Positions 1 through 18,825 of a stretch of 20,000 bases of DNA are shown here, one piece after another. The position numbers and the translations under genes were made by a program. The stretch comes from an uncultured virus (IMG/VR IMGVR_UViG_3300027659_000028). Its lineage: Duplodnaviria; Heunggongvirae; Uroviricota; Caudoviricetes. The notes beneath the pieces were generated by a model. The model saw nothing but the letters and a program-made list of their open reading frames with translations, was not told where the DNA came from and ran no database searches. Position 1 is the first letter of the stretch; each line of letters opens with the position of its first letter. The DNA is taken from the IMG/VR virus record IMGVR_UViG_3300027659_000028. The stretch is one strand, 5' to 3'.

Positions 1-3000
1 ACCCACGGTGTCCGTGATCCGGCCTTCATACTTGCTCTTGATCTTGGCGGTCCATGAATTGATCCCCTGATACGCCTTGAGCAGAGCCAAGATGGACCCC
101 GACTTGTCGGACTTGCTCAGCGCGTGCTTTGCGGAGCCAAACTCCTCGCCGTCAAAATCAGGGAACGCCGAGTCCAACGACTCAAACTCCTCCTGATCGT
201 TGTCGTTGACCTCTTTGTTGAAAAGGAAACCGCCCGTTCTTTCGTAGTCGCTGGCGCTGGTTCCAATCTCAAGCTTTCCAAGCTGGGAACTGACCCAGTA
301 ATTCAGGAACAGGTTCTTGCCCACGAAGTCGGCGTTCGACTCCATCGTTTGTTGGTAAATCTCAAGACCAGCGTTCCAGTCCTCTTGCTCTTGCGTCAGA
401 GTTTTCCCGGCCTTTGGCCATACCGCTTTGGCTCCGTAACTGTAAACGCTCTCGCCAGCCATCAGTCCCTTGAAGACATCATCCGACCCATAAGCGTGCT
501 CCAACGTATCAGACAAGCTCTTGAACTCAAGCGAGCCAGCCTCACCCGTCGGGACGTTCAAGTCCGCCAAGTTGATCCCGAAGTCCTCGCTGCTCTTCCA
601 AAACTCACCGACGGAACGGTTTTTGACGAATTGGATGGAATCGTTGTAGTCGTCAACGGCTTGCTGAAACTCCATGTATTCCCTGTAAACCGCTTGGGCC
701 TTGGCGCGGGCTTCAGGGTCTTGGTTCTCGTCACGCTCAAAGACGTTGTCCTGACGCTTATGGCTGATTTCCTTCTTCTTTTGAGAAGCGTCAAACTTTT
801 CTTGAGAATAAGCACGGAGCTTTTCAATCATCTCCGTCATCTCCGCCACCTTGGACTCCTGTTCCTTTAGTCGGGCTAAAGAGTCAACCACTGGTCCTGA
901 GAAGGTTTTCGCAAACCGCTCGTGCAAATCACCGGTAATGTAGTTCTCGGAGACAAGGAGGGATTGGAGAATAGACGTCTTGTAAGACTCAAGAGCCGCC
1001 GCAAATTCTTCTGGATTGGCCCGTTCAAGACGCTCACGTGGAGACCACTCAACAGACTGATCCACACTTGCAACCAAGGGAGACAACGCGATATTTGTCT
1101 GATCGGTGGACTTGCTTGGTCGCTTGAGATTTCCAACCGGGCGAGCAACGTCGTCAATCTCAAGATTCGTGGAGACCTTGTATTTGCCGGGCTTGAGATT
1201 CTTCCTGAATCCAACGCTGGTCAAACGTCCCCACTTCAAGAGCTCTTTGATTGACGCCGAGCCACTGACCTTGGTGTCGATGTCTTGAACGGCACGAATG
1301 GCGTGAGCATATGCCTCGTTTGCCGTGCGGTTCATCTCGTCCACCGCAAGACCTCTGGCTTCCATCAAAGGAGTCAAAGGGCGCGTTGAAGATTCCTCCG
1401 CAGGCATCCCGTCCAGAATGGTGCGCCACAGCAACATGCGCTTCGCAGCGTTGGCCTCCTTGCGTTGGGTTGGGGACAGGTCGGGGTTGTTGTCGTCGCG
1501 GATGGTGTCGAACAAATCAAGTGGATTGAAGGACAGGCTGTCCCGTCTCATCTCCATGACCTGTTGCTTCATGAAGGCCACCGTCATCGCCTGCTGGTAA
1601 GCCGGTGCCTTCCCACCCTTGTCATTCAGGTCGAACAAAAACCCTTCCACCTGCTCCATCTCCTCATCAGTCAAGGTCTTGTATTCCGCAATGTGAGCCT
1701 TGATCCGTGGATGGAGATCCAGCGTCATGGTCTCGTGGTCGACGACCAAGGACTGACTGAGGTTCATGTGACCAAACTGCCTGCTGATCGAGCGCAGCTT
1801 CATCGCGGTCTTCGACTGGAGACGGGCAATCTTCCCGACCTCCTCCTTGAATGCCTTCTCGTAAACATCACGACGACGTTCCGCCTCCTTGGTCGCCTCG
1901 TCATAGCCGTAGTCCACGTCTCCTTGAATGCCCTCATTCCGGTAAGCCCGGTTCATGCTTGCCAACATTTCACGCGCCTGTGGCGGCAGGGTGCCTGTCT
2001 GCCACTTCATCCAGAGAATGTTCCTGACCCGTTCGGCATAGCGGCGGATCATGTGTCCAATGACGCGCAGAGGACTTTTGGAGAGGCTTCCTTGCGTCTC
2101 GTTGGCCTTGTCAAAGGCGTCCCCGTAAATGGCGTCCTGAAGCTGGCGGGAGAGAGCTGTATCGCGCTCCGTGGTCGTCCCCTTGGTCGCCATCTGGTGA
2201 AGCTTGCGGATCAGCTCCGTTGCCACCGTATAGGTGATTTCCAGTTCTTTGGCGTCCGCTCCCACCGAATCATCCATGTCCGCATCGTCAATTGACGCGT
2301 CGAGCGGCCTACCATTGGTTCCAGTCGGAAAGCGCTCTTTCAACGTTTCTTTCAAAAGACGGGTGAACTCATGGTCCGATCCGTCTTTGTTCTTAGGCAG
2401 GTCGAGAATAGCTTTGTAAAACGACCGAAGTTCGTCGGCGGAGAAAATCTTGAATCCAATCAAGTGGGTGAGCTCTTCGTCAATCCATGCTGAAATAACC
2501 CGAGCGGCATCCATCCCGAGCAGCGTGTTGGACGCGGAATCGTTGGTGTTGGCTGTCCGGTAAATCTTGGCGAGCTGCACAGCCATCTTGGCGTAGTCCA
2601 CCTTGATCGTGCCATACTCGGTTGAATCGACGTTTGGCTCAGCGTAAAGGAAGCTGTCACCGCTCATCTCCTCCTTGACGACCTTGAAGGTCTTCTTCGG
2701 AGACACCACCTTCATCACCTTGGCGAACAGCTTCTCCATGTTCTCTGGAGTGATGTCTCCTTTGGCAATGCTCTTGAAGTGTTTCTGAACCTCCTTGGCA
2801 ACGTTAGCAAGCAAGGAGCGGGTGTATTTGTTTCCTTGGTTTATCAGACCTTTGTCGGTGATGAGGTCGCCAGCAGCTTCGGCAGTGGTTTTCTTGGAGA
2901 ACTCCCAACGTCCATTTACCACATTCGTCACCTGAAGAAACTCGTCAGGCTTGCCCTCAATCGCCACCACCTCGCCAATCGACAATGACAGCGAGCTGCC

Positions 3001-6000
3001 AGTAGGCGGACGGTAGCTGTAAACAACCTCCTTGGTTTCCGAGACGTCCATCGTCCAGTTGCCGCCAATCGAGTCGTCACCTCCCTTGATCAACTCCGGG
3101 TCGGCGACGTAAACCACATCCTGATAAACCGTCGAAGCCGCATTGTCCGCTGTCTTGTCCTGCGTCTTCAGGGCGTCGGCTTTGGAATGGCCAGCAAGAC
3201 GGGCCTGCATGGACTTGATGGCGACAGAACGAGTGCCGCCCCCCTTGGACAACTCATTGTCAATCGCTTCGTCGGTGACGTAGGTTTTGCCGTTCTTGGC
3301 GACGGGTTTGAAGACGCCGTTGTCATGGATGTAGTTCGGATCGTTTTCACCCAATGGCGGAAGCCCGCGCTGGATGTCGCTTCCAAGCTTGTTGCGGACC
3401 ACCTCCCGGTCGTTGTTGGTAGGTGTGGCTGGAGCTGCCGGGGTGGATTCCTCGGCAGCTCCTTCGTTCAGCAGCCCTTGCCTTTTGGCTTCGACATCGG
3501 CATCGGCTTTCCTTTTGGCATCGGTTTCGCTTTGGTTTTCATCGGTTGGTGGTGTTGGTTTCTTGGTTTCTTCCGCCGGAGTGGCGGAAGGAGTTGGGCC
3601 GGTCGTCGGGGCGTCGGGTGAATTCGTTTCTTTTCTCGCGGTTTTGAGTTTTGTGACCTTGCCCCCGAATATCGTGAGAACCGTTCTTGGTGCATGACTA
3701 CCTCCAGTTGCAAACTTCCCGTCACCAATACTCCACCATACCACGCCTTGCTCGTCGATGATTTCTTCAGCCTGCGAAGCCTGTTCTAGTATCTGTGCTT
3801 CGAACGATTTCCGCTTTTTACTTAGTTCCACCGCCGCCTGTTCACGGGTAAGGCCTTCCGCCATTCGCTTTTTGGTATATTCGCGGCCGTCTTTCAGCTC
3901 ATTGGGTAATTGTGGGACAGCATCCCCGATATTTAATGGCGTTTGTGGCGTGGCGGAGGGAGCTTCTTTAACCGGGCTAACTTCAGATGGAGATAAGTCA
4001 ATTTCGTTGTCGCTCAGCCCTTCACTAGATGCCACAGCGCCTGCGCTTGATGTCTTGAGAGATGCGCCAGCACTTGCAGCTTCGCCACCGCTGTTTCCTT
4101 CGGCATCTCGAACATCGGCCAAATCTTCTTCGCCGGTAACGGTGATTTCTGCATCAGTTGTTGGATTTGCTCCATCTTGTTCGGACCATTCATCGTGGTA
4201 GGTTGTGTCGTTTGCATTGGTTGAAAATTTATCTGACCATCGTTTGGCCATGCTGGCGTCTTTCGGCTTGATCACCTGCTTCACCGTTCTGAGCGCGGTG
4301 GCGGCTTGAGGCGGACTGAGATACTCGGTAGTGACGGTGCCGTCTGGATTGACCGTTTCCTTCTTGGCGGCGACGTAGGTGGCCAAGCTCCGTCCTTCCC
4401 CGGACGGGACAGACATCGGAGTGATGGTGACGTTGTTGGCAATCTTCAATGGCGTCGCACCTTCGGTCGGGACCATGGCGATATCCGCCCGCCATTTCTT
4501 GCCAGTGGGGGCGGTGATGCTGGAAGAACTCAAGACATCGCCAAGTGTGCCCACTGGAGGGGGTGTTGCTGCGACTCCCTGTGCCGCAGGAGGCTCTTGA
4601 ATTGGATTGGTGGCACTTGGTGCCGCAGGTGGCGTCGTGGTGGCAGACGTGGGCTCTGGTGCCACGGAAGGGATTGGAGCTGTTGTGGGCGTTACAGCGC
4701 CAACGAAGTCCGCGTTGATCGACTGGCCGCGTGCTAGAGCCAACAACGCCTTTGACTTCTGCTCCACCGACACCTTGTCGTCTGGCATCGCAATGTATTC
4801 CGCCATGTTCTTGGCTCCTGACGCAGTGCCCTTGAACTCGTATTGGTCCAAACTCTGGAAAGTTTCCACCTTGGTCTTTAGCTGGTCCCACGCGGCCTTC
4901 TGGATGTCGTAGCCCTCGCTTTTGCCGAAGGTTCCCTTGGCATCCATCACCGTCCCGGACGCATCCCCCATCGCACCACCCACCGCACCCAAGATACCGG
5001 CCTTGACGTATTCCTTCCACTTGGTGCCGATGTTGCCCCAAACGTCTTCGGTCCACGTCTTGGAGTCGTCGAGCATCGAGCTGATGACGTCGGAGATGAT
5101 CTCGTCAGAGGACTCCTCCACCGCTTCAGCGCCCATGTTGCCGAGCACTCCAACACCTTTCAAACCAAGCTGTTTGGCGGACGTGTTCATCACGCCTTTC
5201 AGATCCTTGGCGAACTGCGTGCGAAGAGAGGCTCCCGCATCACCACCCAAGTCGGAGATGGTTTTCTGGACGGCCTCCATGCTCTCACGAGTGAGGGCCT
5301 TGTTCTTGAGATTCTGGATGAACCCACCACCCACTGCGCCATCACCCATCCCGAACGCCTTGCCCATACCGGGGGCGACACGGTTCATGACACTGGTGGC
5401 GATGAACGCACTGAGACCGTCTGACGTCGCTTCGATGTTCGCCGCCTTTAACGCCTTCTCGCGGTCGCCGTGAAGGTTCATCTCTTGGTTGAACGTCTTG
5501 CCGAAGCTAGTACCTGACGCCTGAAGCGAGCCAAGCCACACCTCCGGATCGGTGCCAATAGATTTTAGCCCGGCTAAAGTCTTTTCCCCGAGAGTGCGTG
5601 TTCCGGCAGCGGCAGCGGCTTCGGTCTTGGCGACCGTGGACAGCAGGACACCCGCCTCGTTGACCGCATAACGACTCGCGCCCGCAGCCCCAACCTTGGT
5701 CAAACCCTTGCCCGCCAACGCGCCCATCCCACCCATCGCGACGAACGAGCCAATCTGTCCGGTGAGCTCGGTCAAGTCGCGGCGATTGATGTCAACGCCA
5801 AACAACTCGAACGCCTTACCATTGGAGTAAGCACCCGCCGTGTCTTCGGCCAAACCTCCCCAAGCTTCCGCAGGCGACGTGTAGTTGCCCGCAGACGCCA
5901 GCCACAAGGCACCAGTCCCCGTCGCCATCATCGCGTCGCGGAACGTCGCCGCGATCTCGGAGCCGACGCCGTAGGAGTCCTTGTCCATCCGGTCCTTGTT

Positions 6001-6951
6001 GGCCTTCAAAAACTCGTAGCCACTGGCTCCGGGCTTCTTCATCGCCTCCATGAACTCGTCCCGCAGCGGAGAGCTCACGATGGAGCCCAAGACGCCCGCG
6101 TCCGCCGCAGCGAACTGGTTGACCGTCTTGCCGATGTTCTCCTCCACCTTCGAACGGTAGTCGATGAGCATCATCTTCTTGTCCGCAGCGGAAAGGTCCA
6201 AACCGTTGATGGCGGCTTCCATCTTGTCGATTTGGTTGAAATTCTTCGGGTTCATCACATACTGATCCCTGACCTTACCAATCATCACCTCGTCACCCAA
6301 CGACGACGGGTCAAAGGTGCGCTTCGCCGACTCGGCGTAGAACGCTTTCTCCATCTCCTTGTTCTCAGGATCAAGGTGGGCCTCGCCGTTCTTCACCTCG
6401 GCGTTGGCGAAGTCGGTGTATTCCTTGTAGGTTAAAGACGGGGACTCCCCCTCCTTGGTGATCTTCTGCCTCTCTTGGATGTAAGCTCCCATGTCCGAGA
6501 ACCGGTCGGGCTGCTTCTCTCTCTTCTGTGTGAGAATGTTTTCAAGAGCAGGGTTGACCTCCCACTCCCGAGTTTCAGGGTTGCGTCTCACGCCACCACC
6601 CGGCAATGAAGCCGCCACTTCCAAATACTCTTTAGCCCGGCTAAAACGTTCCTTGCCATCCTCCGTCAATCCTCCAGCAGTATTGAACATGGGGACCTCA
6701 GCCTCCACCTCCTCGGAGACACCCGCATCGTTTTTGCGCCGAACCAGCCCTTTGATTTTTTTGGTCTTGTCCGCTTCTTCAGTTGTCGCCCAATCCAAAA
6801 ACCCTTCCCCTGCCGTGGCTTTTTGATCCAAGCTGTCAATGTATTGAGCCGAAAGGAGGTAGTCGTTCAAAGAGGACGTCAACTCGTTCTGCACCGGAGA
6901 GTCGGTGGGAAAAAGAGACTCGTCGCCGGTGTTCAGATTGTTGAAATCCAT
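1..6951 (-). CDS. Giant phage protein (>=2317 aa, 3' end outside window); probable internal virion/DNA-ejection large polyvalent-type protein
   Basis: ATG at 6951-6949 after an A/C-rich leader. Hand translation of most of the frame (MDFNNLNTGDESLFPTDSPVQNELTSS...NSWTAKIKSKYEGRITDTVG) found no stop, and its absence from the ORF track implies none down to base 1. Strong GC3 bias. Gly/Ala-rich hydrophobic segments (GQIGSFVAMGGMGALAGKG; AEAVEESSDE...AGILGAVGGAMG), Pro/Thr linkers, and a zincin-like EELTH motif. Last and largest gene of the structural run. Confidence 0.9.
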   Translation of the reverse strand, partial: MDFNNLNTGDESLFPTDSPVQNELTSSLNDYLLSAQYIDSLDQKATAGEGFLDWATTEEADKTKKIKGLVRRKNDAGVSEEVEAEVPMFNTAGGLTEDGKERFSRAKEYLEVAASLPGGGVRRNPETREWEVNPALENILTQKREKQPDRFSDMGAYIQERQKITKEGESPSLTYKEYTDFANAEVKNGEAHLDPENKEMEKAFYAESAKRTFDPSSLGDEVMIGKVRDQYVMNPKNFNQIDKMEAAINGLDLSAADKKMMLIDYRSKVEENIGKTVNQFAAADAGVLGSIVSSPLRDEFMEAMKKPGASGYEFLKANKDRMDKDSYGVGSEIAATFRDAMMATGTGALWLASAGNYTSPAEAWGGLAEDTAGAYSNGKAFELFGVDINRRDLTELTGQIGSFVAMGGMGALAGKGLTKVGAAGASRYAVNEAGVLLSTVAKTEAAAAAGTRTLGEKTLAGLKSIGTDPEVWLGSLQASGTSFGKTFNQEMNLHGDREKALKAANIEATSDGLSAFIATSVMNRVAPGMGKAFGMGDGAVGGGFIQNLKNKALTRESMEAVQKTISDLGGDAGASLRTQFAKDLKGVMNTSAKQLGLKGVGVLGNMGAEAVEESSDEIISDVISSMLDDSKTWTEDVWGNIGTKWKEYVKAGILGAVGGAMGDASGTVMDAKGTFGKSEGYDIQKAAWDQLKTKVETFQSLDQYEFKGTASGAKNMAEYIAMPDDKVSVEQKSKALLALARGQSINADFVGAVTPTTAPIPSVAPEPTSATTTPPAAPSATNPIQEPPAAQGVAATPPPVGTLGDVLSSSSITAPTGKKWRADIAMVPTEGATPLKIANNVTITPMSVPSGEGRSLATYVAAKKETVNPDGTVTTEYLSPPQAATALRTVKQVIKPKDASMAKRWSDKFSTNANDTTYHDEWSEQDGANPTTDAEITVTGEEDLADVRDAEGNSGGEAASAGASLKTSSAGAVASSEGLSDNEIDLSPSEVSPVKEAPSATPQTPLNIGDAVPQLPNELKDGREYTKKRMAEGLTREQAAVELSKKRKSFEAQILEQASQAEEIIDEQGVVWWSIGDGKFATGGSHAPRTVLTIFGGKVTKLKTARKETNSPDAPTTGPTPSATPAEETKKPTPPTDENQSETDAKRKADADVEAKRQGLLNEGAAEESTPAAPATPTNNDREVVRNKLGSDIQRGLPPLGENDPNYIHDNGVFKPVAKNGKTYVTDEAIDNELSKGGGTRSVAIKSMQARLAGHSKADALKTQDKTADNAASTVYQDVVYVADPELIKGGDDSIGGNWTMDVSETKEVVYSYRPPTGSSLSLSIGEVVAIEGKPDEFLQVTNVVNGRWEFSKKTTAEAAGDLITDKGLINQGNKYTRSLLANVAKEVQKHFKSIAKGDITPENMEKLFAKVMKVVSPKKTFKVVKEEMSGDSFLYAEPNVDSTEYGTIKVDYAKMAVQLAKIYRTANTNDSASNTLLGMDAARVISAWIDEELTHLIGFKIFSADELRSFYKAILDLPKNKDGSDHEFTRLLKETLKERFPTGTNGRPLDASIDDADMDDSVGADAKELEITYTVATELIRKLHQMATKGTTTERDTALSRQLQDAIYGDAFDKANETQGSLSKSPLRVIGHMIRRYAERVRNILWMKWQTGTLPPQAREMLASMNRAYRNEGIQGDVDYGYDEATKEAERRRDVYEKAFKEEVGKIARLQSKTAMKLRSISRQFGHMNLSQSLVVDHETMTLDLHPRIKAHIAEYKTLTDEEMEQVEGFLFDLNDKGGKAPAYQQAMTVAFMKQQVMEMRRDSLSFNPLDLFDTIRDDNNPDLSPTQRKEANAAKRMLLWRTILDGMPAEESSTRPLTPLMEARGLAVDEMNRTANEAYAHAIRAVQDIDTKVSGSASIKELLKWGRLTSVGFRKNLKPGKYKVSTNLEIDDVARPVGNLKRPSKSTDQTNIALSPLVASVDQSVEWSPRERLERANPEEFAAALESYKTSILQSLLVSENYITGDLHERFAKTFSGPVVDSLARLKEQESKVAEMTEMIEKLRAYSQEKFDASQKKKEISHKRQDNVFERDENQDPEARAKAQAVYREYMEFQQAVDDYNDSIQFVKNRSVGEFWKSSEDFGINLADLNVPTGEAGSLEFKSLSDTLEHAYGSDDVFKGLMAGESVYSYGAKAVWPKAGKTLTQEQEDWNAGLEIYQQTMESNADFVGKNLFLNYWVSSQLGKLEIGTSASDYERTGGFLFNKEVNDNDQEEFESLDSAFPDFDGEEFGSAKHALSKSDKSGSILALLKAYQGINSWTAKIKSKYEGRITDTVG
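866..880. repeat. 15-bp palindromic motif copy 1 (TTTAGTCGGGCTAAA)
   Basis: Read directly; inside the giant ORF, encoding L-A-R-L-K with rare TTA/CTA codons. Confidence 0.9.
3468..3542 (-). CDS. Candidate overprinted 24-aa basic peptide MKTKAKPMPKGKPMPMSKPKGKGC (+1 frame of giant ORF)
   Basis: ATG 3542-3540, TGA 3470-3468. Preceded by AAGAAACCAAGAAACCAACACCACCAACCG, resembling the leader of the 11338 gene. Lys/Pro/Met/Gly composition is unlike ordinary shadow frames. Confidence 0.5.
   Translation of the reverse strand: MKTKAKPMPKGKPMPMSKPKGKGC
3967..3981. repeat. Degenerate copy of the palindromic motif (TTTAACCGGGCTAAC)
   Basis: Two mismatches to TTTAGCCNGGCTAAA. Confidence 0.5.
4014..4217 (-). 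CDS. Candidate overprinted 67-aa protein (+1 frame of giant ORF)
   Basis: Leader GATAAATTTTCAACCA-ATG resembles the giant gene's own TAATATTTTCAACACACCCCT-ATG. Protein-like M/Q/K/L-rich translation. Host-frame third positions are about 40/60 A/T over 4021-4200. Confidence 0.4.
   Translation of the reverse strand: MQTTQPTTMNGPNKMEQIQQLMQKSPLPAKKIWPMFEMPKETAVAKLQVLAHLSRHQAQALWHLVKG
5564..5578. repeat. 15-bp palindromic motif copy 2 (TTTAGCCCGGCTAAA)
   Basis: Perfect 7-1-7 inverted repeat inside the giant ORF (L-A-G-L-K). Confidence 0.92.
6631..6645. repeat. 15-bp palindromic motif copy 3 (TTTAGCCCGGCTAAA)
   Basis: Perfect 7-1-7 inverted repeat inside the giant ORF, in a different codon phase (F-S-R-A-K). 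Confidence 0.92.
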
Positions 6952-6969
6952 AGGGGTGTGTTGAAAATA

Positions 6970-8304
6970 TTATTTGCGGGTTTTGTCGAATCCAGTGGAT
7001 GAGGTTTTCAGGGTTTTCTCGGCAGCGGATCTGACCTTGTCCGCTTTTGCGCTGATCGCTTCAGGTGACCCCGTGAGGTTTTTCGGGTCCTTGTAGAAAT
7101 CAATCATGATTTGCTTGATCGCTGAGTTGGCCTTCTCTTCTTTTTCTTGCTGGAACCTTTGGCGGGCCAGCTGGGAATCCCCCTCGCGATCCCCGATCTG
7201 ACTGTTCGTGTTGCTTGCGGCAAGATCTGCTTTTTTCCTTTCGCGTTCAAGCTCATCCTCTTTTTGGCGGGCACTAAAGTCCATCCAATCCTTGTCGATC
7301 CGGCCAACCAGCGGACGCATGTGCGCGTTCATCTCGGCCATCTTCACCTTGAACGCATCTTTGGTTGCCGGGTCTTTCATGTCCAAACGCTCCGATGCAA
7401 TCTTAAGGAGATTGTCCGAAAGTGCCTTGCGGGTGGAGGTGGCTTGATAAAGGGACGCGTGAGCTTTCACGGCAGACTCAATCGCCTTGTCTTCAGGAGA
7501 TCCTTCAGGAGCCACGTTGCGAGCGTTACCATATTGGATTTCAATCTCCTCTGGAGAAAGATCATTACTTAGGTTCACTCCCTTGCCTTTGAGGCCGTTG
7601 ATGATGGGTTGGATCTGGTCGATGATCTTCTTGTTGTATTTTTCAAGATTGGACGCCTTGCCCAATCCCTCAACCATCATGCCCATCTGCCTGACATCCG
7701 AAGCCATGTCGGGATCATTGCCGTAATGCTGGCCCCATCCAGCCAGCTGGACCGAGAGATCATGATGGTCATCGCTGATTTGACCGGACAGCTGGTAAAG
7801 GTTGTTCACCGAGTTGGAATCGACATCATCTTGTAAAATCTTGTTCTGGCTCGAGAGGAGACGTCCTGACGACAACGCGTTATCCATATTTAAACTAGCA
7901 AGCTCTTTCCTTTTAGGTTCATTGGCATCCCACTCGTCCATGGCGGTTGACTCCGCTTTCATCTTCCTTGCTTTGTGCGTAGATTCCGAAGCGTTGGTCA
8001 GGGCGTCTGCCGCCTCCTTGATCCGCTTGTTGCCGGGATTGCGCATCTGAAGCTGGGCGAGCACCTTGGCGTTGCCCTCGTAGTCGTCAGGAGCAATCCC
8101 CATCTTCCTGTATTCCTCGTCGAACGCGTCAAACTGCTGGGATTCTTTCTCCTCCTTGGCCGCGTCTCGCTTCATCTTGTCAATCCCAAGCGCTCCAGAT
8201 TCATTCCCTTGTCGCAACCTAATCAGGTTCTCTACCGCCATGCTTTCGGGCAGGACGTTAAAAGCGGAGACCGCTGTGTCGTAATCGGAGGAAGAGTAGG
8301 GCAT
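6970..8304 (-). CDS. 444-aa helical/coiled-coil protein, probable internal virion (ejection) protein
   Basis: Long ORF, charged alpha-helical composition, immediately upstream of the giant gene. Function inferred from position. Confidence 0.75.
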   Translation of the reverse strand: MPYSSSDYDTAVSAFNVLPESMAVENLIRLRQGNESGALGIDKMKRDAAKEEKESQQFDAFDEEYRKMGIAPDDYEGNAKVLAQLQMRNPGNKRIKEAADALTNASESTHKARKMKAESTAMDEWDANEPKRKELASLNMDNALSSGRLLSSQNKILQDDVDSNSVNNLYQLSGQISDDHHDLSVQLAGWGQHYGNDPDMASDVRQMGMMVEGLGKASNLEKYNKKIIDQIQPIINGLKGKGVNLSNDLSPEEIEIQYGNARNVAPEGSPEDKAIESAVKAHASLYQATSTRKALSDNLLKIASERLDMKDPATKDAFKVKMAEMNAHMRPLVGRIDKDWMDFSARQKEDELERERKKADLAASNTNSQIGDREGDSQLARQRFQQEKEEKANSAIKQIMIDFYKDPKNLTGSPEAISAKADKVRSAAEKTLKTSSTGFDKTRK

Positions 8305-8311
8305 GGGCGTG

Positions 8312-8326
8312 TTTAGTCAGGCTAAA
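8312..8326. promoter_or_regulatory. 15-bp palindromic motif copy 4 (TTTAGTCAGGCTAAA), intergenic, operator-like
   Basis: Fills most of the 26-bp gap and lies 7 nt upstream of the ATG at 8304. Confidence 0.7.
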
Positions 8327-8330
8327 GTTA

Positions 8331-9962
8331 TCAGGCGTATCTCTGAAGGAAGTTGGATCGTTCACGGACTTCGTTGATCGGGGCTTGGTAGGCAGCGGCC
8401 CGCTGCTGGAGCTTGTTGTCTATGGAGGCTTGGTCGGGTGATCTTGCCTCTTTTTTAAGGGAATCGTTGGTTTTGCTTATGATACGATTTCCAGTAACAC
8501 CAGTAGCCATGTCATCGTAAGTATGCTCTTTTGATCCATACTCAAGATTTTGAGCGACTCCGTCGAGGTAAGCGATCCTGCTTTTTCGAGATTCCTGTTC
8601 TTTGTCTGCAATCTCAATCTCAGTTTTCCTGTATTCAGCGGACTGTCTTGATGTTTCTTCCTTTTCGATTTGTTCTGGAGACTTGGCTGAAGGAGACTTG
8701 ATCTTATCCGCCAAAGCCTTCATGGCGTTGATATTCTCATCGCCAAGACTGGGGAATTTTTCAGAAAAGCTTCTTCGGCTTTCCTCAAGACGTGATTTCT
8801 CCGCTTCTTCTGGGGTTGGCTCCTTAGCGGAAAGCGTCGGCATCCGGCTGTCCGTCTGCGGCTCCGCCAGCTGATCATTGGAGGCTTGATACAGGGGGTC
8901 GATGGAGTCGCCTTTGCCTGTGTTCTTCGACAAAGACGCAACACCTTTGTCAATCTGCTTGAGCATCTGATCCTTGGTTATTCCAAGGCTTTCCCCATAA
9001 GCATAAAGCTCGTCGTTTGGAGTTCCAGAAAGATGTTCTTCAGGGTTTTTTCGGTTTTTGTCCACTGGTGCGCGGCCAAGTTCGAGCAAATCTTTACCGA
9101 GCTTCTGTCTCTTGAAAACATTCGCCTGCTCTTCAATCGCGTTCTTGCGCTTCGTCTCCCACTCCATTGGTGCTGGCTTGCCCTTTCCCGCCCCACCCTG
9201 TGCCACAGGAGGCGTCGTAGCGGGGACCGGGGCACCTTGTCCCACAGGCTCGCTCGGAGCGCTCACAAGGCCATTCTCGTCCGTCGTCGGAGGAGTAATC
9301 CTAGTCCCGCCCGCAGGCGCAGCTGGATAACCATCTACGCGAGTGCCAACCTCCCCAGTGGATGCACCGTCGCGTTCGGGGATGTAGTTTAAATTTGAGC
9401 GAGGCTGGGCGCTGCCGGGACCGTATTTATCGGTGTTCGTAGCGCTTATGGACGGCTTTGCGTTTGAAGTTGGAGTATCAGCTTGTGATGTTCCCAGCTT
9501 TGAATTCCCTCCGTCAGCGGTGGACGTTCCAATTTTCGAATTCGTTCCACCATCAGCCGTAGCGACACCAACATTCTTGTTTACAGCGTCAGCCTGACCG
9601 GCAACCACATCGGCTGAATTCTGTTTGCCTTGGAGCCGTAGGCCCTCTTTCGTGAAGTTGTCCGCCGTTTGACTGTCTTGATTCCGGTTTTGTTCCGCGT
9701 CCCTTATTCCGCGACCGTTGATATATCCCGGCGTGTCTCTTCGATTTTGCTGCTCTTTGGCCGCCGCAATTCTCACGGATGCTGGCTGGCTGGAATCGCG
9801 CATCGTCTTCGACAGCATCCGGTCAGAAGCAGCCTGATCCATCCTGTCTGCTTTTGCCGCCCGCTCACCAGCGCTTGGGGCCGCCATGCTATACTTCCTG
9901 CTTCCCGTTGGCTTATCCAGCGAGGAGGTTCCGTTCATTCGTCTTCCGTCTCCGAGTCCCAT
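8331..9962 (-). CDS. 543-aa low-complexity, largely disordered protein, probable internal virion protein
   Basis: Long ORF; hydrophilic and Pro/Gly/Thr-rich; short internal repeat (TADGGTNSKIGTSTADGGNSKLGTS). Function inferred from position. Confidence 0.72.
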   Translation of the reverse strand: MGLGDGRRMNGTSSLDKPTGSRKYSMAAPSAGERAAKADRMDQAASDRMLSKTMRDSSQPASVRIAAAKEQQNRRDTPGYINGRGIRDAEQNRNQDSQTADNFTKEGLRLQGKQNSADVVAGQADAVNKNVGVATADGGTNSKIGTSTADGGNSKLGTSQADTPTSNAKPSISATNTDKYGPGSAQPRSNLNYIPERDGASTGEVGTRVDGYPAAPAGGTRITPPTTDENGLVSAPSEPVGQGAPVPATTPPVAQGGAGKGKPAPMEWETKRKNAIEEQANVFKRQKLGKDLLELGRAPVDKNRKNPEEHLSGTPNDELYAYGESLGITKDQMLKQIDKGVASLSKNTGKGDSIDPLYQASNDQLAEPQTDSRMPTLSAKEPTPEEAEKSRLEESRRSFSEKFPSLGDENINAMKALADKIKSPSAKSPEQIEKEETSRQSAEYRKTEIEIADKEQESRKSRIAYLDGVAQNLEYGSKEHTYDDMATGVTGNRIISKTNDSLKKEARSPDQASIDNKLQQRAAAYQAPINEVRERSNFLQRYA

Positions 9963-9964
9963 AT

Positions 9965-9979
9965 TTTAGTCAGGCTAAA
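9965..9979. promoter_or_regulatory. 15-bp palindromic motif copy 5 (TTTAGTCAGGCTAAA), intergenic, operator-like
   Basis: Occupies 15 of the 19 intergenic bases, 2 nt upstream of the ATG at 9962; identical to the 8312 copy. Confidence 0.7.
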
Positions 9980-9981
9980 GG

Positions 9982-10638
9982 TTAATTGAATTGGCGCGGC
10001 TTTCTCCGCAGGCTGGAATCCATCCCCAGATTGAACTTCTTGGGACCGTGCACCTGTCTCTCCGACAGCTTGATGAACTGGTCAAAGCTCTGCCAATGGC
10101 CCATCGCTTCGGCGTCGTTGCCGACCACCTCCGCGCACACGGCCCGGATGGCACATTTAAGCGCCCCGGAGCTCTCGACGGGGATGACGGAGTCCTCGCT
10201 CAACACAGGGGCTTCCAGCTTCATCAGGACGTAGTAAGGACCGCCCGTGGGAGCAAACCCCAGCGGCATCCGGTATTTGCGGACCAGAACCTCGTCCACC
10301 TCCACCGTCCCCATGTCCACCACCGACAGGTCGCCGCCGTTCACCCCGTTCTTGAACAGGATGGTCTGGTCCATGATCGACCAGCCTCGCGACTGGTTCC
10401 TGAACCCCACCATCCCGTTGTAAGTTTGCTCGTTGAAATGGAGGAAGTATTCCACCAGATCGGCGTCGTAGATGAAATCCTCGTCTGCCAGCTCCACCTG
10501 CACCGTCGTCCCCGGCCAGCGGCCCATCTCATACACCCGGTCCACCGCCTCTTGGATCGCGTCCTCGATGCTGATGTCCGTGGTGACAAGAGAGCCAAAA
10601 CGGACAGCAGCTTCGGAGAATGTCATGAGCTTCGCCAT
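9982..10638 (-). CDS. 218-aa putative head-tail adaptor / tail tubular protein A-like
   Basis: N-terminal 'IEDAIQEAVDRVYEMGRW' helix and C-terminal 'ALKCAIRA...A..HW' helices resemble podovirus adaptors; size and position fit; high GC3. Confidence 0.6.
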   Translation of the reverse strand: MAKLMTFSEAAVRFGSLVTTDISIEDAIQEAVDRVYEMGRWPGTTVQVELADEDFIYDADLVEYFLHFNEQTYNGMVGFRNQSRGWSIMDQTILFKNGVNGGDLSVVDMGTVEVDEVLVRKYRMPLGFAPTGGPYYVLMKLEAPVLSEDSVIPVESSGALKCAIRAVCAEVVGNDAEAMGHWQSFDQFIKLSERQVHGPKKFNLGMDSSLRRKPRQFN

Positions 10639-10646
10639 ATTTTTTG

Positions 10647-10674
10647 ATTATGCTGATTGTAAGGAAAGATTCAA
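10647..10674 (-). promoter_or_regulatory. Sigma70-like promoter TTGAAT-N16-CATAAT
   Basis: -35 at 10674-10669, -10 at 10652-10647. Lies just downstream of a terminator and 8 nt before the ATG at 10638. Confidence 0.55.
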
Positions 10675-10688
10675 GAACCGATTCATGC

Positions 10689-10727
10689 AAATAAAAGGAA
10701 CCCGCCGCCTTGAAGACGACGGGTCCC
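10689..10727 (-). terminator. Rho-independent terminator
   Basis: Minus strand GGGACCCGTCGTC-TTCAA-GGCGGCGGGTTCC (13-bp stem with G-U pairs) followed by TTTTATTT, 11 nt after the stop at 10739. Confidence 0.85.
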
Positions 10728-10738
10728 GAAAAACCGAA

Positions 10739-11338
10739 TCACTCGTCGGTGACCTCGACGGCGCTGGCGGTGGTGACAACGGTCACAAAATAAGAACGGG
10801 TGATCACCCCGGTGTTGTCGTCAATGCTGGAACTGCGGGTGATCGTCAGTTTGGATGAACGGTCCCCGACAGCGAGACCGGTGTAGCGCCAGTAGAGCAT
10901 CTCCATGATGCCGAAGACCACCTTGCGCCAGTCGCCCACGGTGGATGCGGTGGCCTCGGTGTCCGTCACTTCGTCGAGCAAGCCCATAACTTGGCAGGTG
11001 TTGGCGGCGGTCCCCCCAACAGTGATTGCCAGCGTGTCGCCGCCACGGGTGGCAGACAGGGTGATCGTGTCCGTGGTGGGTGTGGTTTTTACGTAGTAAT
11101 CCGTAGACTCGGAAATCCCGGTCGGCAAAGCAGGGGTTGTCCCCGCCAATGAAAAGCGGACCCGGTCCCCGACGATGAGCCCGTGATCGGCGGCGAACAG
11201 GAGGATGTCATCGGTCGCGCACGAAACCGTGGTGCCGGTAGTGGTTCCTGCTGCTGTGTTGGTTTTCAGGCTGATCGCGCTGGAGGCGAGGGAGTAGGAT
11301 TTGCCGAAGAAGGCAAGCGGTGATTTGGAATAGGCCAT
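10739..11338 (-). CDS. 199-aa phage structural protein with an 'HGL..GD.V' beta domain (possible decoration protein)
   Basis: DHGLIVGDRVRFS...LPTGIS..TDYYV...TITLSATRGG pattern is typical of small beta-barrel modules in virion proteins; Thr-rich; has its own promoter and terminator. Confidence 0.7.
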   Translation of the reverse strand: MAYSKSPLAFFGKSYSLASSAISLKTNTAAGTTTGTTVSCATDDILLFAADHGLIVGDRVRFSLAGTTPALPTGISESTDYYVKTTPTTDTITLSATRGGDTLAITVGGTAANTCQVMGLLDEVTDTEATASTVGDWRKVVFGIMEMLYWRYTGLAVGDRSSKLTITRSSSIDDNTGVITRSYFVTVVTTASAVEVTDE

Positions 11339-11378
11339 GGTCGTATTTGGTTGTTGGTTGTTGGTTGGATGCGTGAGA

Positions 11379-11407
11379 GTTATAGGGTTTTAGTGGAGCT
11401 GAGACAA
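11379..11407 (-). promoter_or_regulatory. Sigma70-like promoter TTGTCT-N17-TATAAC
   Basis: -35 at 11407-11402, -10 at 11384-11379, followed by a CCAA/CAA-rich leader to the ATG at 11338. Confidence 0.55.
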
Positions 11408-11409
11408 GC

Positions 11410-13314
11410 TCATTCAGGCGTTAAGCGATAACCCACCACCTTCACCCCCGTGCCCGGAGCTGGGGTCGGTAAATTTGTGAAGGCCACCATCGGGATAGTG
11501 GCATCCGACCCTCTTGTTGGGACGGGCAGTTTGGTCCATGTTTGAGAAATAACCTTTGCCCCGGCTCCGGAAGCCGAATCGCACCGTACATAAAAGCCGC
11601 CACCTGCCCCATCATGTTTTCCGGAATAAGTTGTAGATATGTTGGTGTTGCTTGGAGTTGGAGTTGTACCGCCGGAGGGTTTATAAAAGTAGGGCTTATA
11701 GTCGCTGGGGGTCCAGTCAATTCCACCAGCAACCGCTTTGTATTTTGAGGCGACAGGTTCAAGGGGGTCGCTTGAGGTGTCTGAGTATTCCTCCATCACT
11801 TCAAGGCTAAATCTACCGCTTACACTCGTCGCTCCACAGCTGGGCTTCTCGCCATCGGCCTTGATCCCTAAGTTTGCCACGGTGGTCTTTACTCGGTAGG
11901 TAGACTCCGAAGTCTTAAACCCAGAATGCCCCCAAGTATTTCCTTCACGGTATCGGGTATAGGCTAGCGCCACGACATTGAATCCCGGGGTGCTTGAGAC
12001 GATTCCATCTTTAACAACGACCCACTCCCACTTAATCACCGTGGTTCCGGGTGTGAGTCCGGGTTTTTCTACCGCAGTCCAGCGTTCAATCTTTGGAACG
12101 GAAACTTGCGCACCCATCATGCCATCCGGATTAGTAGCTGGAAATCTATACTTCACCTGCAAAGTAGACGAATCTGTTGTGACAGCCGTCCGACTAATAA
12201 TGTCACGCCCCGTAAAATAATCAGTTGCCCGCACTTCAAGTGTGAGCCTCAACTTGGTGCCATCAATGGATATGAAAACAACTTCATGGCCCCGCCCGTC
12301 GCCGTTGTAATATGGCGATGCGTGATTGCCAGCCAGCTTGGGGGCCTTATTGAGTACGGTGTCGTTGCCGAAAAGACCCCAATCATCCACGTATTTTTTA
12401 TTATTCGGCACGCGGTTTGAAAGGACCGTATTCCAAGACCCGGTATTATACATTTCATACCCCGCGGACACATAGCCCGAGCCGCCGTATTCACCTTTTT
12501 TCATCAAGGCGGGGATTAACTGTTGGGTTTCAATCAAGACATGCACAGAGTATTTACCGTCCCAGAACTCGTATTCACTCTCGCCACTTGGGACGGTCTT
12601 TGAGAAATTTGGGTACGAGTCGCCATAACTATAATCACAAACGCAAACTGCGCCACCACTTTTGGTTGATTCAGTATGATATGCCATGGAGATTGCGGTA
12701 TTCCCCACTTTGGAGTTCCCGCTCAAGGCGCTCCACGCGGAAAGAACCGGCACAAGATTCTCGGTGGTGACCGGCTCGCTAAGCCCGACGCTGTGGGTAA
12801 AACCAACTGTGCTGCCTTCTGTCTCTGGTGGTTCTGGAGGAATCCAAGTCTTGAATACGACCGAAGATTCGGTCTGGGCGTGGGCCGTCCCGAATACATG
12901 ATTACCCCCGCCGAGATAGCGGTAGTTATCCCCCGTATGGTTTTCCTTGATTTCTATTACTCCGTTTGATTTAACATTATAACTGTAGTTTTCATTATAG
13001 GTATAGTTCTTTACTACCCGTTCTAGGGAGCCATCATCCTGAATTTCCCACGACCATGCCTGCCAATCCGTCCGGCTCTTGGAATAAATATTTTCACCGC
13101 ATATTACAGTTCTTATACCCGGTGTTTGTAGAGCGTTTGAGTACGTAAATTGGCTGAAATTGATTGCGCCTAAACCGAGTGCGGTAGCCCTCGTGGCGGG
13201 CAAGGACTGCCGTGTCTCCCCAAGAGTTAGCGGGTAAACGTAACCATACGAACTCCCCCCTCCATGGGTATACACCGGGACAACCAAGTCGTTGTGTGTA
13301 AGTTCGTAAAACAT
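11410..13314 (-). CDS. 634-aa beta-rich (Gly/Ser/Thr/Tyr) protein, putative tail/receptor-binding component
   Basis: Long ORF coupled to the upstream gene by a TAATG overlap; visibly more AT-rich than its neighbours. Confidence 0.75.
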   Translation of the reverse strand: MFYELTHNDLVVPVYTHGGGSSYGYVYPLTLGETRQSLPATRATALGLGAINFSQFTYSNALQTPGIRTVICGENIYSKSRTDWQAWSWEIQDDGSLERVVKNYTYNENYSYNVKSNGVIEIKENHTGDNYRYLGGGNHVFGTAHAQTESSVVFKTWIPPEPPETEGSTVGFTHSVGLSEPVTTENLVPVLSAWSALSGNSKVGNTAISMAYHTESTKSGGAVCVCDYSYGDSYPNFSKTVPSGESEYEFWDGKYSVHVLIETQQLIPALMKKGEYGGSGYVSAGYEMYNTGSWNTVLSNRVPNNKKYVDDWGLFGNDTVLNKAPKLAGNHASPYYNGDGRGHEVVFISIDGTKLRLTLEVRATDYFTGRDIISRTAVTTDSSTLQVKYRFPATNPDGMMGAQVSVPKIERWTAVEKPGLTPGTTVIKWEWVVVKDGIVSSTPGFNVVALAYTRYREGNTWGHSGFKTSESTYRVKTTVANLGIKADGEKPSCGATSVSGRFSLEVMEEYSDTSSDPLEPVASKYKAVAGGIDWTPSDYKPYFYKPSGGTTPTPSNTNISTTYSGKHDGAGGGFYVRCDSASGAGAKVISQTWTKLPVPTRGSDATIPMVAFTNLPTPAPGTGVKVVGYRLTPE

Positions 13315-14030
13315 TAGACGCGGTGGTGGGACAATAATTTTGTGAGTATCACATCCCCGGCAGACCCACCAGCAATGTTTGAAACGTGCTCCGTCACCAT
13401 AACACTGCCGTAATTCGGGTTGATATAAAACGATCCTTCGGTAGACACGTAAACCGAACCCAAACTGAACACATAAAATTCAGGTCGTTCACCACCCGCC
13501 ATCCACTCTGGAGTCTCATGGGCATCCCAATTGGACGCTTGGAGTATCTTAAAGTTGGTTACCGCAAGGGATTTCTTGGGCCCAAAAAAGACCTTAGCAA
13601 AAAAATAACTATTGCGACTCGTACCCAAGCCTACGTCAAAGTGTTCGTCCCAATTGTCCGCTATGGCGTTGTTAACGGTCCCCCATGTTACATAAATCCT
13701 TACTGTGTTTTTGGGGGATTCACCCGGATCAGGAATGTAGGCGGGGCGAGATGCTGTAAGCTCAAGGGGATTCTTCTTTTGACCCTTGCGGTCCGGAGTG
13801 AGGGTGATCTTGAGCTCGGTCTTGTTGCGGAGATACGGCTCCGGGGTCGCGTAGGCTCCGATCTTGGCAGGGACATAGTTACTGCCTTGGCCGGGGCCGA
13901 AGAAAGAGTTGGGGTTGCGCGGACCAGTGTCCCACGGGTCGCGGGTAATCGGCGTGCCCCTGCTCCCGGTCCCTCTGCCCGCGCCAGCGGTAGCCGCATC
14001 ATTCACCGTGCCTGTGTCCTTGAGTCCCAT
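13314..14030 (-). CDS. 238-aa putative tail-associated structural protein
   Basis: Coupled at both ends (TGATG at 14028-14032, TAATG at 13312-13316); 'YVTWGTVNN' beta motif. Confidence 0.72.
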   Translation of the reverse strand: MGLKDTGTVNDAATAGAGRGTGSRGTPITRDPWDTGPRNPNSFFGPGQGSNYVPAKIGAYATPEPYLRNKTELKITLTPDRKGQKKNPLELTASRPAYIPDPGESPKNTVRIYVTWGTVNNAIADNWDEHFDVGLGTSRNSYFFAKVFFGPKKSLAVTNFKILQASNWDAHETPEWMAGGERPEFYVFSLGSVYVSTEGSFYINPNYGSVMVTEHVSNIAGGSAGDVILTKLLSHHRV

Positions 14031-17000: not shown

Positions 17001-17488
17001 CCCTCCAAGGCGGCGGAGTTCTCGGCAATGGTCTCGGTGACCTCGCTGAGCACTGCCTTGCCCGTGTTCGGGGTCTGGGTGACGACCGAGGACACAAGGT
17101 CGCCTGCAAGCGCCGTGGGCGCGGTGCCGGGGTCCACCTCCTGCTCGGTCTTGACCACCACGGTCTGGCTCCGGTATTTCTGCGGAGTGAGGTTGTCCTT
17201 GGATTTGGAAGTGGTCGTCCAAGCGGGGCCATCCAGCTTCTGGAAAATCCAGTAATGGTCCTTGCCACCCTTGTCAGCTGGCTCAATGGAGACCAGCGTG
17301 TAGCCCGCGTATTTCGCCGTGTCTTTCGCCGCCAGACCAATCTCGGTGATGGCTGTTCCAAACGGCTTGTCGGGAAACTTGGACGCCAGCGTCGGGTCCA
17401 TTCTGACGATGACCTCGTAGTGTCCCGCAGACGGTTCCAGCACCTTCATGATGCGCGGAGTGCTGAACGGTGGGTCTGGAACTGCCAT
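14030..17488 (-). CDS. 1152-aa Thr-rich tandem beta-repeat virion protein
   Basis: Three ~137-aa repeats (DNLTPQKYR...ETIAEN..LEG...PIGNGKSV.QT; third partial and diverged), then about ten 51-58-aa repeats (KPFV.I...YDDG/FNDG..VYE; later WG.I.W.GTY...SRQV...NE). Confidence 0.88.
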   Translation of the reverse strand: MAVPDPPFSTPRIMKVLEPSAGHYEVIVRMDPTLASKFPDKPFGTAITEIGLAAKDTAKYAGYTLVSIEPADKGGKDHYWIFQKLDGPAWTTTSKSKDNLTPQKYRSQTVVVKTEQEVDPGTAPTALAGDLVSSVVTQTPNTGKAVLSEVTETIAENSAALEGQQFAPDGTLLATSEDLVLDGTSADKSVNVSQSTVDPIGNGKSVRQTSTAKKRDTSDATVDGWPNKQKKSKGTDNLTPQKYRGQTVTSVTTEQVALAAVNVDDIPDPASPVSPQTVIEHEKVNDYRYEKRTITETIAENLIPLEGEEYGEIVTKSVSEVLVNDGTPADSGFNVISSMVEPIGNGKSVKQTKTAKGGWSDPINKEVSKEGADTPPPRYRKDLTRTKTTRKIAASAIPITPSLSGDEVAKSYQKETPDRAEETVVSQSFTLNTSSVDEAVEQKPFVKITSKMTPGTAPVVPASGNGSAKLVYEAPNGSKIYENTAEIATARPGPSGEEKDTKPFVTIKTAKRFSTTANISTLTGSANVVFNDGATQIYEVSEVTSTGRFGSAGVEQQTKPFVSITSTATYQNTGTLGTGEVGSTNKIYDDGSTTVYEKKVDTATARSGPAGTEKDEKPFVKIETKKRYSPNADVATKTGSANIVFNDGKVQVYEVNEVTAVAKPGEAGQEKDEKPYVTIKTAKRYDTSNTVNTKTGASNKIYDDGDVKVFEINEVTSTAKPGLKGIETNAQQWGSIKSTTDYTTSDKAPSGGSVNLVYNDGQTTVYETTTTTATTSGTGKDVDSQQWGQIEWNGTYAKTTSGTRSRQVWSNGVEQVFFNETAALKVSGGTKEIDPNAWGSITWDGTYATSSGGQKSRQVARVGDTTVFLNENATLQPEGSTEEIDANSWGSITWKGTYSKSSSAGSNGKSRQVYSGPGGSVYLNETPTVKPLERSFQSAKKTTPTYTVTETTSFTKSSEASEPNSQTRLVFAQGTERVFEKTVRKVEPNRTVIYYSVINAQTPSVLKAILREPIKRKPNSEGPVRDKICIRADIEEGYSGLFPAKITEYFTRDAAKAEKFKQLLFKTKRIDYDGIQYQVSIGETLHRQMTLVDIIGTNDPDYVSLQKLPNTFTNIPATEPPEIPKGWQNYAIQIDPFEDGYLVKEIQVKYKD

Positions 17489-17522
17489 GGCTTTAGTTAC
17501 ATTGAAAGTAAGGAGAAGTCAA

Positions 17523-18110: not shown

Positions 18111-18114
18111 GGCG

Positions 18115-18526: not shown

Positions 18527-18532
18527 AACGGT

Positions 18533-18805: not shown

Positions 18806-18825
18806 GGGATTGGGGGGTGAAAGTG

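Follow-up and report, generated by a model that had tools for sequence, protein, structure and literature searches.

A candidate overprinted mini-gene in a modular linker cassette of a giant freshwater phage gene

The 20,000-nucleotide (nt) stretch analysed here, hereafter the window, belongs to the IMG/VR record IMGVR_UViG_3300027659_000028 (Caudoviricetes) and derives from a freshwater phage, parts of which are contained in 20 public runs of 12 studies (lakes, other fresh waters and an estuary); one RNA run contains 6% of the stretch's words. All large genes of the window are carried by the minus strand, among them a giant open reading frame (ORF) whose 5′ 2317 codons occupy 1..6951, with the start codon at 6951, and which runs off the window start. 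The full size of this giant ORF, 4848 amino acids (aa), was read in the near-identical G001, a 50,124-bp viral record estimated to be 75% complete, to which window bases 1-17,885 are identical; the last 2115 bases of the window (17886-20000) lie past the end of G001, so the source assembly must be longer than G001. Nested within the giant ORF, at an offset of +1, is the subject of this study, a complete 24-codon ORF at 3468..3542 (minus strand; ATG 3542-3540, TGA 3470-3468), whose start and stop both lie inside the host gene and whose peptide starts at offset 3409 of the host coding sequence. The peptide it would encode, MKTKAKPMPKGKPMPMSKPKGKGC, is rich in Lys, Pro, Met and Gly and ends in a Cys, with 8 Lys among its 24 residues and no Asp or Glu, where the host frame reads ETKKPTPPTDENQSETDAKRKADADVEAKR.

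The ORF had been proposed as a real nested gene in a sequence-only reading of the window, and rereading the sequence confirmed its 24 codons in the +1 frame, its 8 Lys and lack of acidic residues, and the A/C-rich tract before its ATG. The +1 frame is open here for 105 codons from stop to stop, 86 of them counted from a TTG and 75 from ATG 3695. Imperfect in-frame direct repeats of 16-17 nt (3477..3533, minus strand, at spacings of 30, 18 and 24) underlie the Asp/Ala/Lys/Arg part of the host linker as well as the repeated KP and MP pairs in the +1 peptide. No length or rarity beyond chance was found for the ORF: 22 of the 59 ATG-started ORFs in the +1 frame of the giant gene reach at least 24 codons, against 23.9 ± 3.3 expected from 500 codon-order shuffles and 25.5 ± 3.2 from 500 synonymous shuffles, and 318 of the 500 synonymous shuffles keep an ATG ORF of at least 20 codons on the linker. 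The 25 longest +1 ORFs of the giant gene are all basic, with at most 3 acidic residues each. Given the host protein and its codon usage, the probability that the +1 frame stays open is 0.97 in the window and 0.79 in the distant homologue L006, because a +1 stop requires a T at host codon position 2, i.e., a hydrophobic residue; the ATG arises from GAT with G as the next base, and the Lys codons from GAA or AAA with A or G next. Since the shuffles and these probabilities put it at chance level, the length of the ORF was rejected as evidence for a gene.

The evidence that carries the case begins with natural variation. Contigs from 4 of the 20 runs were placed on 3000-4000, and each difference was classed by its effect in either frame. 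Ten sites vary inside the ORF, seven of them at host codon position 1, where the change replaces a host residue (Gly>Arg, Gln>Lys, Lys>Glu twice, Lys>Gln, Thr>Ala and Glu>Lys) and is silent in the +1 frame; the other three alter both frames, and none is silent in the host frame only. The single changes possible in the ORF comprise 33 that are host-changing and +1-silent and 40 that are host-silent and +1-changing, and the probability of a 7:0 split under constraint on frame 0 only is 0.0026-0.0039. In the remaining compared stretch, only 1 of the 12 listed changes is +1-silent (Fisher P = 0.005 vs. the ORF); in the linker just outside the ORF, all five changes fall at host position 2 and none at position 1 (Fisher P = 0.019), and in the conserved flank 3000-3463 four of seven are host-silent. 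The third codon positions of the ORF absorb nearly all of its change. The ATG and the TGA are unaltered in all four variant haplotypes that were rebuilt, one of which differs in 5 host residues and two 2-codon deletions while its +1 peptide carries no substitution; 6-nt deletions within the repeats 3477-3533 occur in contigs X11 and X17. The asymmetry between the classes of change and the kept boundaries point to a second layer of selection, as far as comparison of sequences can tell. A diversity-generating retroelement was rejected as the source of this variation, the variable sites not being adenine-specific across codon positions and no template copy having been found.

A second line of evidence comes from L006, the only homologue with readable DNA (6 IMG/VR loci and 1 metagenome locus) that aligns in the linker. 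Its giant protein is 49% identical in amino acids to that of the window, and its GC content is 39% vs. 55% in the window phage. At the aligned place, L006 keeps an ATG, an open +1 frame and a stop, and the frame reads MMKPSAKPKAMPKKMAKSMPKKMAKKKMC-stop, again a Lys/Met/Pro peptide ending in Cys-stop, which spans 41 codons when counted from upstream ATGs. Over the same codons, the two phages are identical at 10 of 23 positions in the +1 frame and at 6 of 23 in frame 0, so that the +1 frame is the better kept of the two, as the sequence-only reading had expected of a gene. Synonymous resampling leads one to expect a +1 identity of 3.2 ± 1.5 with gene-wide codon usage, 3.1 ± 1.4 with context-aware usage and 4.7 ± 1.5 with local usage, the last giving P = 0.0013 for the observed 10. 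The excess of +1 identity (z = 4.78) is the highest of 3536 ungapped aligned 23-codon windows, and the other high-scoring windows are those with high protein identity. Among the five alternative frames, the +1 frame scores highest (z = 4.59), followed by the directly opposite antisense frame (z = 3.98, 10/24 identity).

The high +1 identity is due to the codon choice of L006. The span of its +1 ORF holds 14 rare C- or G-ending codons, which include every codon for an at least threefold-degenerate amino acid except the last; all five Ala codons are GCC, which makes up 7-8% in that gene, and the usual codons of L006 return directly after the +1 stop, in the hairpin that follows. In the window's ORF, Ala is likewise GCC in 4 of 4 cases, vs. 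0.21 in the surrounding island of atypical codons, and third positions of the linker are 0.54 identical between the two phages vs. a saturated 0.31 gene-wide. None of the relatives readable as DNA, i.e., the four haplotypes and L006, has lost the ATG, the open +1 frame or the stop, and the refuting condition named in the sequence-only reading thus did not arise in them, which is a weak test since openness is nearly automatic. Elsewhere in the L006 giant protein, residues ~358-410 (its own ~346-400) show the most atypical codon usage of that gene (z = −4.9); there, the protein is 87% identical to that of the window over 30 residues, with third positions only ~0.5 identical.

The start context of the ORF is also unusual. 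Directly 5′ of the ATG, at 3543..3569 (minus strand), lies an A/C-rich, G-poor, unstructured tract (AAACCAAGAAACCAACACCACCAACCG), a putative Shine-Dalgarno-independent leader. Its resemblance to the leader of the gene at 11338, which reads as quoted in the sequence-only reading, proved real and general: at 44 gene starts of the phage, the fraction of G in the upstream 25 nt is 0.15 vs. 0.28 before internal ATGs, none of these 44 starts has a purine-rich Shine-Dalgarno tract, and many lie behind CAA/ACC-rich leaders, others behind a conserved small palindrome, TTTAGCCTGACTAAA, both of which are used in L006 too. Such G-poor leaders lacking a Shine-Dalgarno tract suggest a host that initiates without Shine-Dalgarno pairing, for which a Bacteroidota-like host is our guess. 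In leader-like composition, ATG 3542 ranks 4th among 681 internal ATGs, several of the higher or similarly ranked ones probably being true starts missed by the crude gene list, and the first ATG of the L006 +1 ORF ranks 1st among 749. The minimum free energy of the region −30..+30 around ATG 3542 is 0.0 kcal/mol, an openness matched by only 2 of 600 sampled internal ATGs, and the first ATG of the L006 ORF likewise lies in one of the least structured contexts of its gene's internal ATGs.

The palindrome TTTAGCCTGACTAAA (15 nt, arms TTTAG/CTAAA) stands 3-25 nt 5′ of many starts in the window phage and L006. On the minus strand of the window it is found at 8312-8326 and 9965-9979, with variants at 866-880, 5564-5578, 6631-6645 and 17563-17577, and it also occurs in G001 and L006. 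With up to 2 mismatches allowed, the window contains 9 matches vs. 0.01 expected, and this phage group may use the element as a promoter, as an operator or as a hairpin signal in RNA.

The surroundings of the ORF, which had been described as a low-constraint linker, are instead a discrete cassette of ~160 nt that has hairpins as its borders and assorts among mosaic relatives. At its 5′ edge is an upstream stem-loop (3570..3590, minus strand) with a perfect 8-bp stem and a 5-nt loop, which contains a mosaic junction at ~3587; at the other end, a downstream stem-loop (3431..3462, minus strand) with 13-nt arms, 92% complementary, and a 6-nt loop begins 5 nt past the +1 stop. The L006 counterpart of the latter has a 15-bp stem (~12935-12970) and begins 7 nt past its +1 stop. 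In either phage, no other 48-nt window of the giant gene is as stable as this downstream hairpin (1st of 1208 in the window, 1st of 1358 in L006). It encodes GAAEESTPAAP, the best-kept frame-0 motif of the linker (GAA...PAA), which by itself favours pairing, as its resamples average −17.8 vs. a gene mean of −10.0; the real hairpins are modestly stabler than synonymous recodings (P = 0.05 for the window, 0.03 for L006), and at one pair the C-G of the window is replaced by U-A in L006. No variant falls within the downstream hairpin in the 4 runs, though the adjoining ORF varies.

Mosaic junctions fall at the hairpin edges of the cassette. Loose contig ends lie at 3587-3588 in X2, X4 and X11, and another mosaic junction lies at 3431; in one contig, 3139-3430 is replaced by 295 other bases while 3431-3587 is kept with a single difference, showing that this module assorts apart from both flanks. 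Similarity to the relative P0029 extends from one stem-loop to the other, with 40 of 54 residues identical over the cassette vs. 33% in the surrounding region. The cassette overlaps a low-GC3 island (3472..4254, minus strand, residues ~900-1160), in which the G+C content at third codon positions (GC3) is 0.35-0.53 vs. 0.69 gene-wide; the island has the most atypical codon usage of the giant gene, and most of it lies outside the ORF. Its upstream part, ~3590-3950, is absent or replaced in relatives, contigs leave the window sequence at ~3587, and 3612-3917, to which no contig of the 4 runs extends, is replaced or absent in these contigs; the island is probably a module exchanged recently. A blastn-short search with the 186-nt cassette against the 52-kb genome and 6 related loci returned only the cassette itself, all other matches being at most 16 nt, and the outer inverted repeat consists of one weak 10-nt pair (3456-3465 / 3587-3596, 90% complementary). 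A multi-copy mobile element resembling Rickettsia palindromic elements or miniature inverted-repeat transposable elements was rejected on account of this single copy. The notion that the ORF is a formerly free-standing gene engulfed by the growing giant ORF likewise found no support, as no free-standing or other copy was found.

The wider family offers further, mostly protein-level, comparisons. A full HMMER search gave 25 relatives of the giant protein, nearly all of 4000-6400 aa, a family that has no Pfam or PHROG match of its own; no Pfam domain was found at E ≤ 0.001 in the window's giant protein or in 8 relatives. Searches of 10 window proteins against Pfam and PHROGs returned only phrog_3000 and a weak phrog_14139, both of unknown function, and no Pfam match for the neighbours. 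A CHAP domain (peptidoglycan hydrolase-type) is present near the equivalent place in the distant homologues L007 (13677-14129, E = 4e-6) and L011 (protein residues ~1700-1800); to judge from its sequence, such a domain fits a virion protein that would act on the cell wall at entry. PF18760 is listed for P0029. Six relatives are known as protein only (P0002, P0003, P0005, P0027, P0028 and P0029), and the +1 frames of P0002, P0028 and P0029 were deduced from the possible codons. The linker of P0027 is identical to that of the window, and that of P0028 differs by five replacements and two 2-codon deletions; in P0002, which is 80% identical overall, the linker is much altered and carries a 6-codon deletion.

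Searches for further copies of the linker or the peptide were largely negative. Blastn and tblastn against GenBank phages gave no match, viral contigs scanned with a single protein piece yielded no further relative with DNA, and a scan of viral contigs with a linker alignment (window, P0029 and P0028) gave 93 pattern matches, none of which was confirmed; genome contigs scanned with two alignments (A1 and A2) gave no confirmed match. Metagenome contigs yielded only L012, the same as L006 across the 510 nt compared, and none of 4374 candidate shorter proteins spanning the linker scored. A degenerate DNA pattern of the peptide core matched 5 loci in viral contigs, which belong to two unrelated sequence families in other contexts and were rejected as homologues, being chance matches. 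When 10 sources were read in all six frames, comparable windows rich in Lys, Met and Pro turned up at this one homologous place only.

On this evidence our preferred reading, held tentatively and from sequence comparison, is that the 24-codon +1 ORF may be a genuine, translated overprinted mini-gene within a modular linker cassette of ~160 nt. On the long late messenger RNA, ribosomes of a host that does not depend on Shine-Dalgarno pairing would load on the A/C-rich tract 3569-3543 and start at ATG 3542, yielding a strongly positive Lys/Pro/Met/Gly peptide of ~2.6 kDa with a C-terminal Cys, and would terminate at TGA 3468, with the strongest hairpin of the gene beginning 5 nt farther on. Translation of the ORF, action of the peptide as a polycation, e.g., in nucleic-acid binding, and membership of the hairpin in the expression unit of the ORF are each presumed in this scheme; the DNA-condensing role once suggested for the peptide is pure inference. 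The claim of a real nested gene stands in part: the 7:0 asymmetry, the L006 peptide, the start context and the position of each giant gene's most stable hairpin 5-7 nt past the +1 stop speak for it, and the chance-level ORF and the relatives known only as protein speak against it.

Several considerations weigh against the mini-gene. The existence, length, charge and openness of the ORF follow from the hydrophilic codons of the host, and the leader-like tract is equally what Lys, Pro, Thr and Gln codons give. The variant test has only 10 sites, of which 3502 may be a deletion-alignment artefact, and it draws on short or shallow Logan contigs, some of depth 2.5-6.7, that were placed at 80% likeness on a repetitive stretch of low complexity. 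Position-1 changes make up about half of all single-step replacements in the protein family, and 7 of 10 alone would give P = 0.17; because the position-1 excess alone is unremarkable, the 7:0 test depends on the missing host-silent changes, and very young variants under selection on the host protein would be expected to lack host-silent changes as well. The peptide tolerates 2-residue deletions and spans ~20-41 aa, with indels in frame. In the comparison with L006, all alternative frames are raised, so the signal is partly a shared codon "dialect". As deduced from its protein, P0002 is unable to keep the same +1 stop, and position 1 accounts for 3/9 of the replacements in P0002, 3/8 in P0029 and 7/17 in P0003, i.e., ordinary kinds of replacement, so that the +1 peptide must differ there. 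The feature is absent from the distant homologues L007, L009 and L011, L008 is not alignable here, and the nested product is thus not conserved over the whole clade of the host gene. Finally, Pfam and PHROGs at E ≤ 1 contain no family for the 24-aa, the 75-aa or the L006 41-aa product, so the likeness to known basic phage peptides that the sequence-only reading had drawn was not borne out at the level of families.

These points lend themselves to an account in frame 0 only, which we consider somewhat less probable than the mini-gene and which nevertheless comes close behind it, namely that the ORF is a by-product of a hydrophilic, slippage-prone, recombining polyampholyte linker, maybe one under diversifying selection in frame 0. 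Its Lys/Met/Pro content, leader-like tract and stop at the first hydrophobic residues would then be host composition, the shared dialect would reflect imported alleles, and no peptide, or none that matters, would be made. Frame-0-only accounts do explain the ORF, its charge, its openness, the stop at the first Leu-Leu and the leader-like tract, and with recombination and slippage added they explain much of the odd codon usage too. Comparable +1 ORFs are as numerous as in shuffles and the longest 25 are all basic; the ATG, the Lys codons and the missing stops derive directly from host codons; and the linker consists of in-frame direct repeats with 6-nt indels, in an island whose atypical codons lie chiefly outside the ORF. 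The junctions at 3431 and ~3587, together with the 40/54 match of the P0029 cassette on a 33% backbone, indicate that linker alleles move by recombination, P0002, P0029 and P0003 show only ordinary kinds of replacement, and the linker of one contig diverges 10-fold more than its flank. However, such accounts do not easily explain the 7:0 asymmetry, or why the 14 rare codons of L006 fill exactly the ORF span and give way to usual codons in the adjoining hairpin, since an imported patch would have to match the borders of the ORF. Nor do they easily explain third-position identity (0.54, where sites elsewhere are saturated) across genomes of opposite GC3; the 4/4 GCC for Ala in an island where its share is 0.21 and the first place of this window among 3536 also tell against the by-product.

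Alternatively, the cassette, with its succession of hairpin, unstructured A/C-rich stretch, purine-rich repeats and second hairpin, could function at the RNA or DNA level, for instance in RNA processing or stability, in the pausing or standby binding of ribosomes, or as a junction at which modules of the giant gene are shuffled by recombination, leaving the +1 ORF incidental; we regard this as unlikely. The downstream hairpin, with its first rank in both phages, its slight advantage over synonymous recodings, its C-G to U-A exchange and its invariance beside a varying ORF, would fit such a role, as would the mosaic junctions at the hairpin edges, the Ala codons GCT, GCA and GCT, uncommon there, that the window hairpin uses, and the folds of the whole region (z = −4.64 in the window, −3.13 in L006). 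However, sites within the ORF vary with a period of three bases in phase with the +1 frame, a pattern not predicted for a nucleotide-level element; significant structure is lacking in the ORF part (z = −0.94), the GAA...PAA motif alone gives a strong hairpin, the upstream hairpin is not seen in L006, and a scan of 3300-3900 found neither a sigma-70-like promoter nor a terminator-like site. Two further explanations appear very improbable. An antisense gene on the plus strand, 144 aa at 3187-3621, would have its wobble positions at host codon position 1, and it does render 5 of the 10 variable sites silent, with 2 more causing Phe/Leu swaps, in addition to the 10/24 identity with L006. In this frame the linker becomes a hydrophobic segment rich in Gly, Phe and Ile with a basic tail behind it, a hydrophobic reading that is most likely the automatic complement of Lys/Glu/Ala codons. 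Its variant fit is poorer than that of the sense +1 frame (5 vs. 7 silent), the flank 3187-3463 within it shows ordinary frame-0 variation, and the neighbouring genes are all on the other strand; it was rejected chiefly since L006 has no ATG, GTG or TTG between the upstream stop and the region of atypical codons, so that no antisense ORF could cover the region there. Programmed +1 frameshifting, by which ribosomes on the giant ORF would slip in the linker and end at TGA 3468 to give an N-terminal part of ~1150 aa with a polybasic tail, could draw on two AAA-AGG pairs in the ORF (AGG being 13% of Arg codons) and on the strong hairpin after the +1 stop. However, neither X-XXY-YYZ nor any other slippery site common to the two phages occurs 5-9 nt 5′ of the hairpin, and AGG is missing from L006 there. 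The pair of variant sites lying 12-15 nt 5′ of the ATG change the +1 frame while those downstream are mostly silent, which agrees better with initiation at the ATG than with a shift 5′ of it. A frameshift site was rejected for want of a slippery sequence common to both phages.

The overprinted mini-gene, if it exists, may have a wider extension, which we put forward as speculative and think improbable. The hairpin-bounded cassette of ~160 nt might be a self-contained, horizontally shuffled unit in giant-protein linkers that carries its own mini-gene, composed of a Shine-Dalgarno-independent leader, a polycationic Lys/Pro/Met peptide of 20-41 aa and a terminal hairpin, a "moron within a linker" whose translation in the host frame would merely be tolerated as a spacer.

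To our knowledge, ORFs nested in long genes never appear in the output of gene callers, and it is usual to dismiss disordered linkers as unconstrained. If the mini-gene is genuine, overprinted genes expressed without Shine-Dalgarno signals can reside in the linkers of giant phage proteins, and the linker can be the module with which these mini-genes pass from phage to phage. A single GAT-to-GAC change would abolish the start and leave the host protein untouched, which makes the case testable. In addition, the analysis is a worked example of the reach of frame-aware variant counting in public metagenomes for a candidate of 75 nt. If the mini-gene is not real, the case is a warning that several signatures of dual coding can be imitated when hydrophilic repeats and recombination combine with a shared codon dialect. 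No report of a gene nested in a giant phage protein gene was met in the literature found, in which no search was aimed at it, and we do not claim that none is in print.

Among known systems, Rz1 of phage lambda is nested in Rz and is a lipoprotein with an N-terminal signal and a lipobox, a known partner and a role in lysis. The present ORF shares with it the nesting of a short same-strand +1 ORF wholly inside a longer gene of a phage; Rz1 also has an internal start of its own, a proline-rich product and a functionally placed Cys, and the candidate would be alike in these respects. No sequence relation between the two is expected, and the candidate has 24 aa, is polycationic, has no signal sequence and carries its Cys at the C-terminus, and it lies in a linker of a 4848-aa protein of the structural module. 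The classic overprinted genes of small viruses, such as E in D and K across A/C of phiX174, belong to tiny genomes under size pressure and have genetic proof. They likewise use a second frame in coding DNA for a short, compositionally biased and probably disordered product, with constraint on the silent sites of the host frame as their signature, whereas here the genome exceeds 52 kb, the overlap is 75 nt and the candidate is known from comparison alone. Overprinting is the subject of two reviews (PMC8227390, PMC6195259), and its detection in a single genome that of a methods report (PMC6188560).

In composition and small size, with 8 Lys in 24 residues, no acidic residue and Pro/Ala/Gly spacers, the peptide resembles small basic DNA-binding or DNA-condensing peptides, although long +1 ORFs of this gene are all basic and the candidate is Met-rich and matches no Pfam or PHROG family. 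Known examples of that class are J of phiX174, mu of adenovirus and histone-H1-like Lys/Ala/Pro tails. Rickettsia palindromic elements are in-frame selfish inserts in protein genes, and the cassette is like them in being an in-frame segment of ~150 nt with inverted repeats that encodes a hydrophilic surface or linker segment on unrelated backbones; it differs in being a single copy with a weak 10-nt outer inverted repeat and no sign of transposition. The host gene, as distinct from the nested ORF, recalls the concept of "polyvalent" giant multi-domain phage proteins. Giant proteins of this kind are treated in PMC7824862 and PMC9503650. The window protein and 8 relatives differ from them in the lack of a Pfam domain at the threshold given above, whereas the family resembles them in its size of 4000-6400 aa, its place in a block of structural genes and its variable inserted modules, i.e., CHAP in L007 and PF18760 in P0029.

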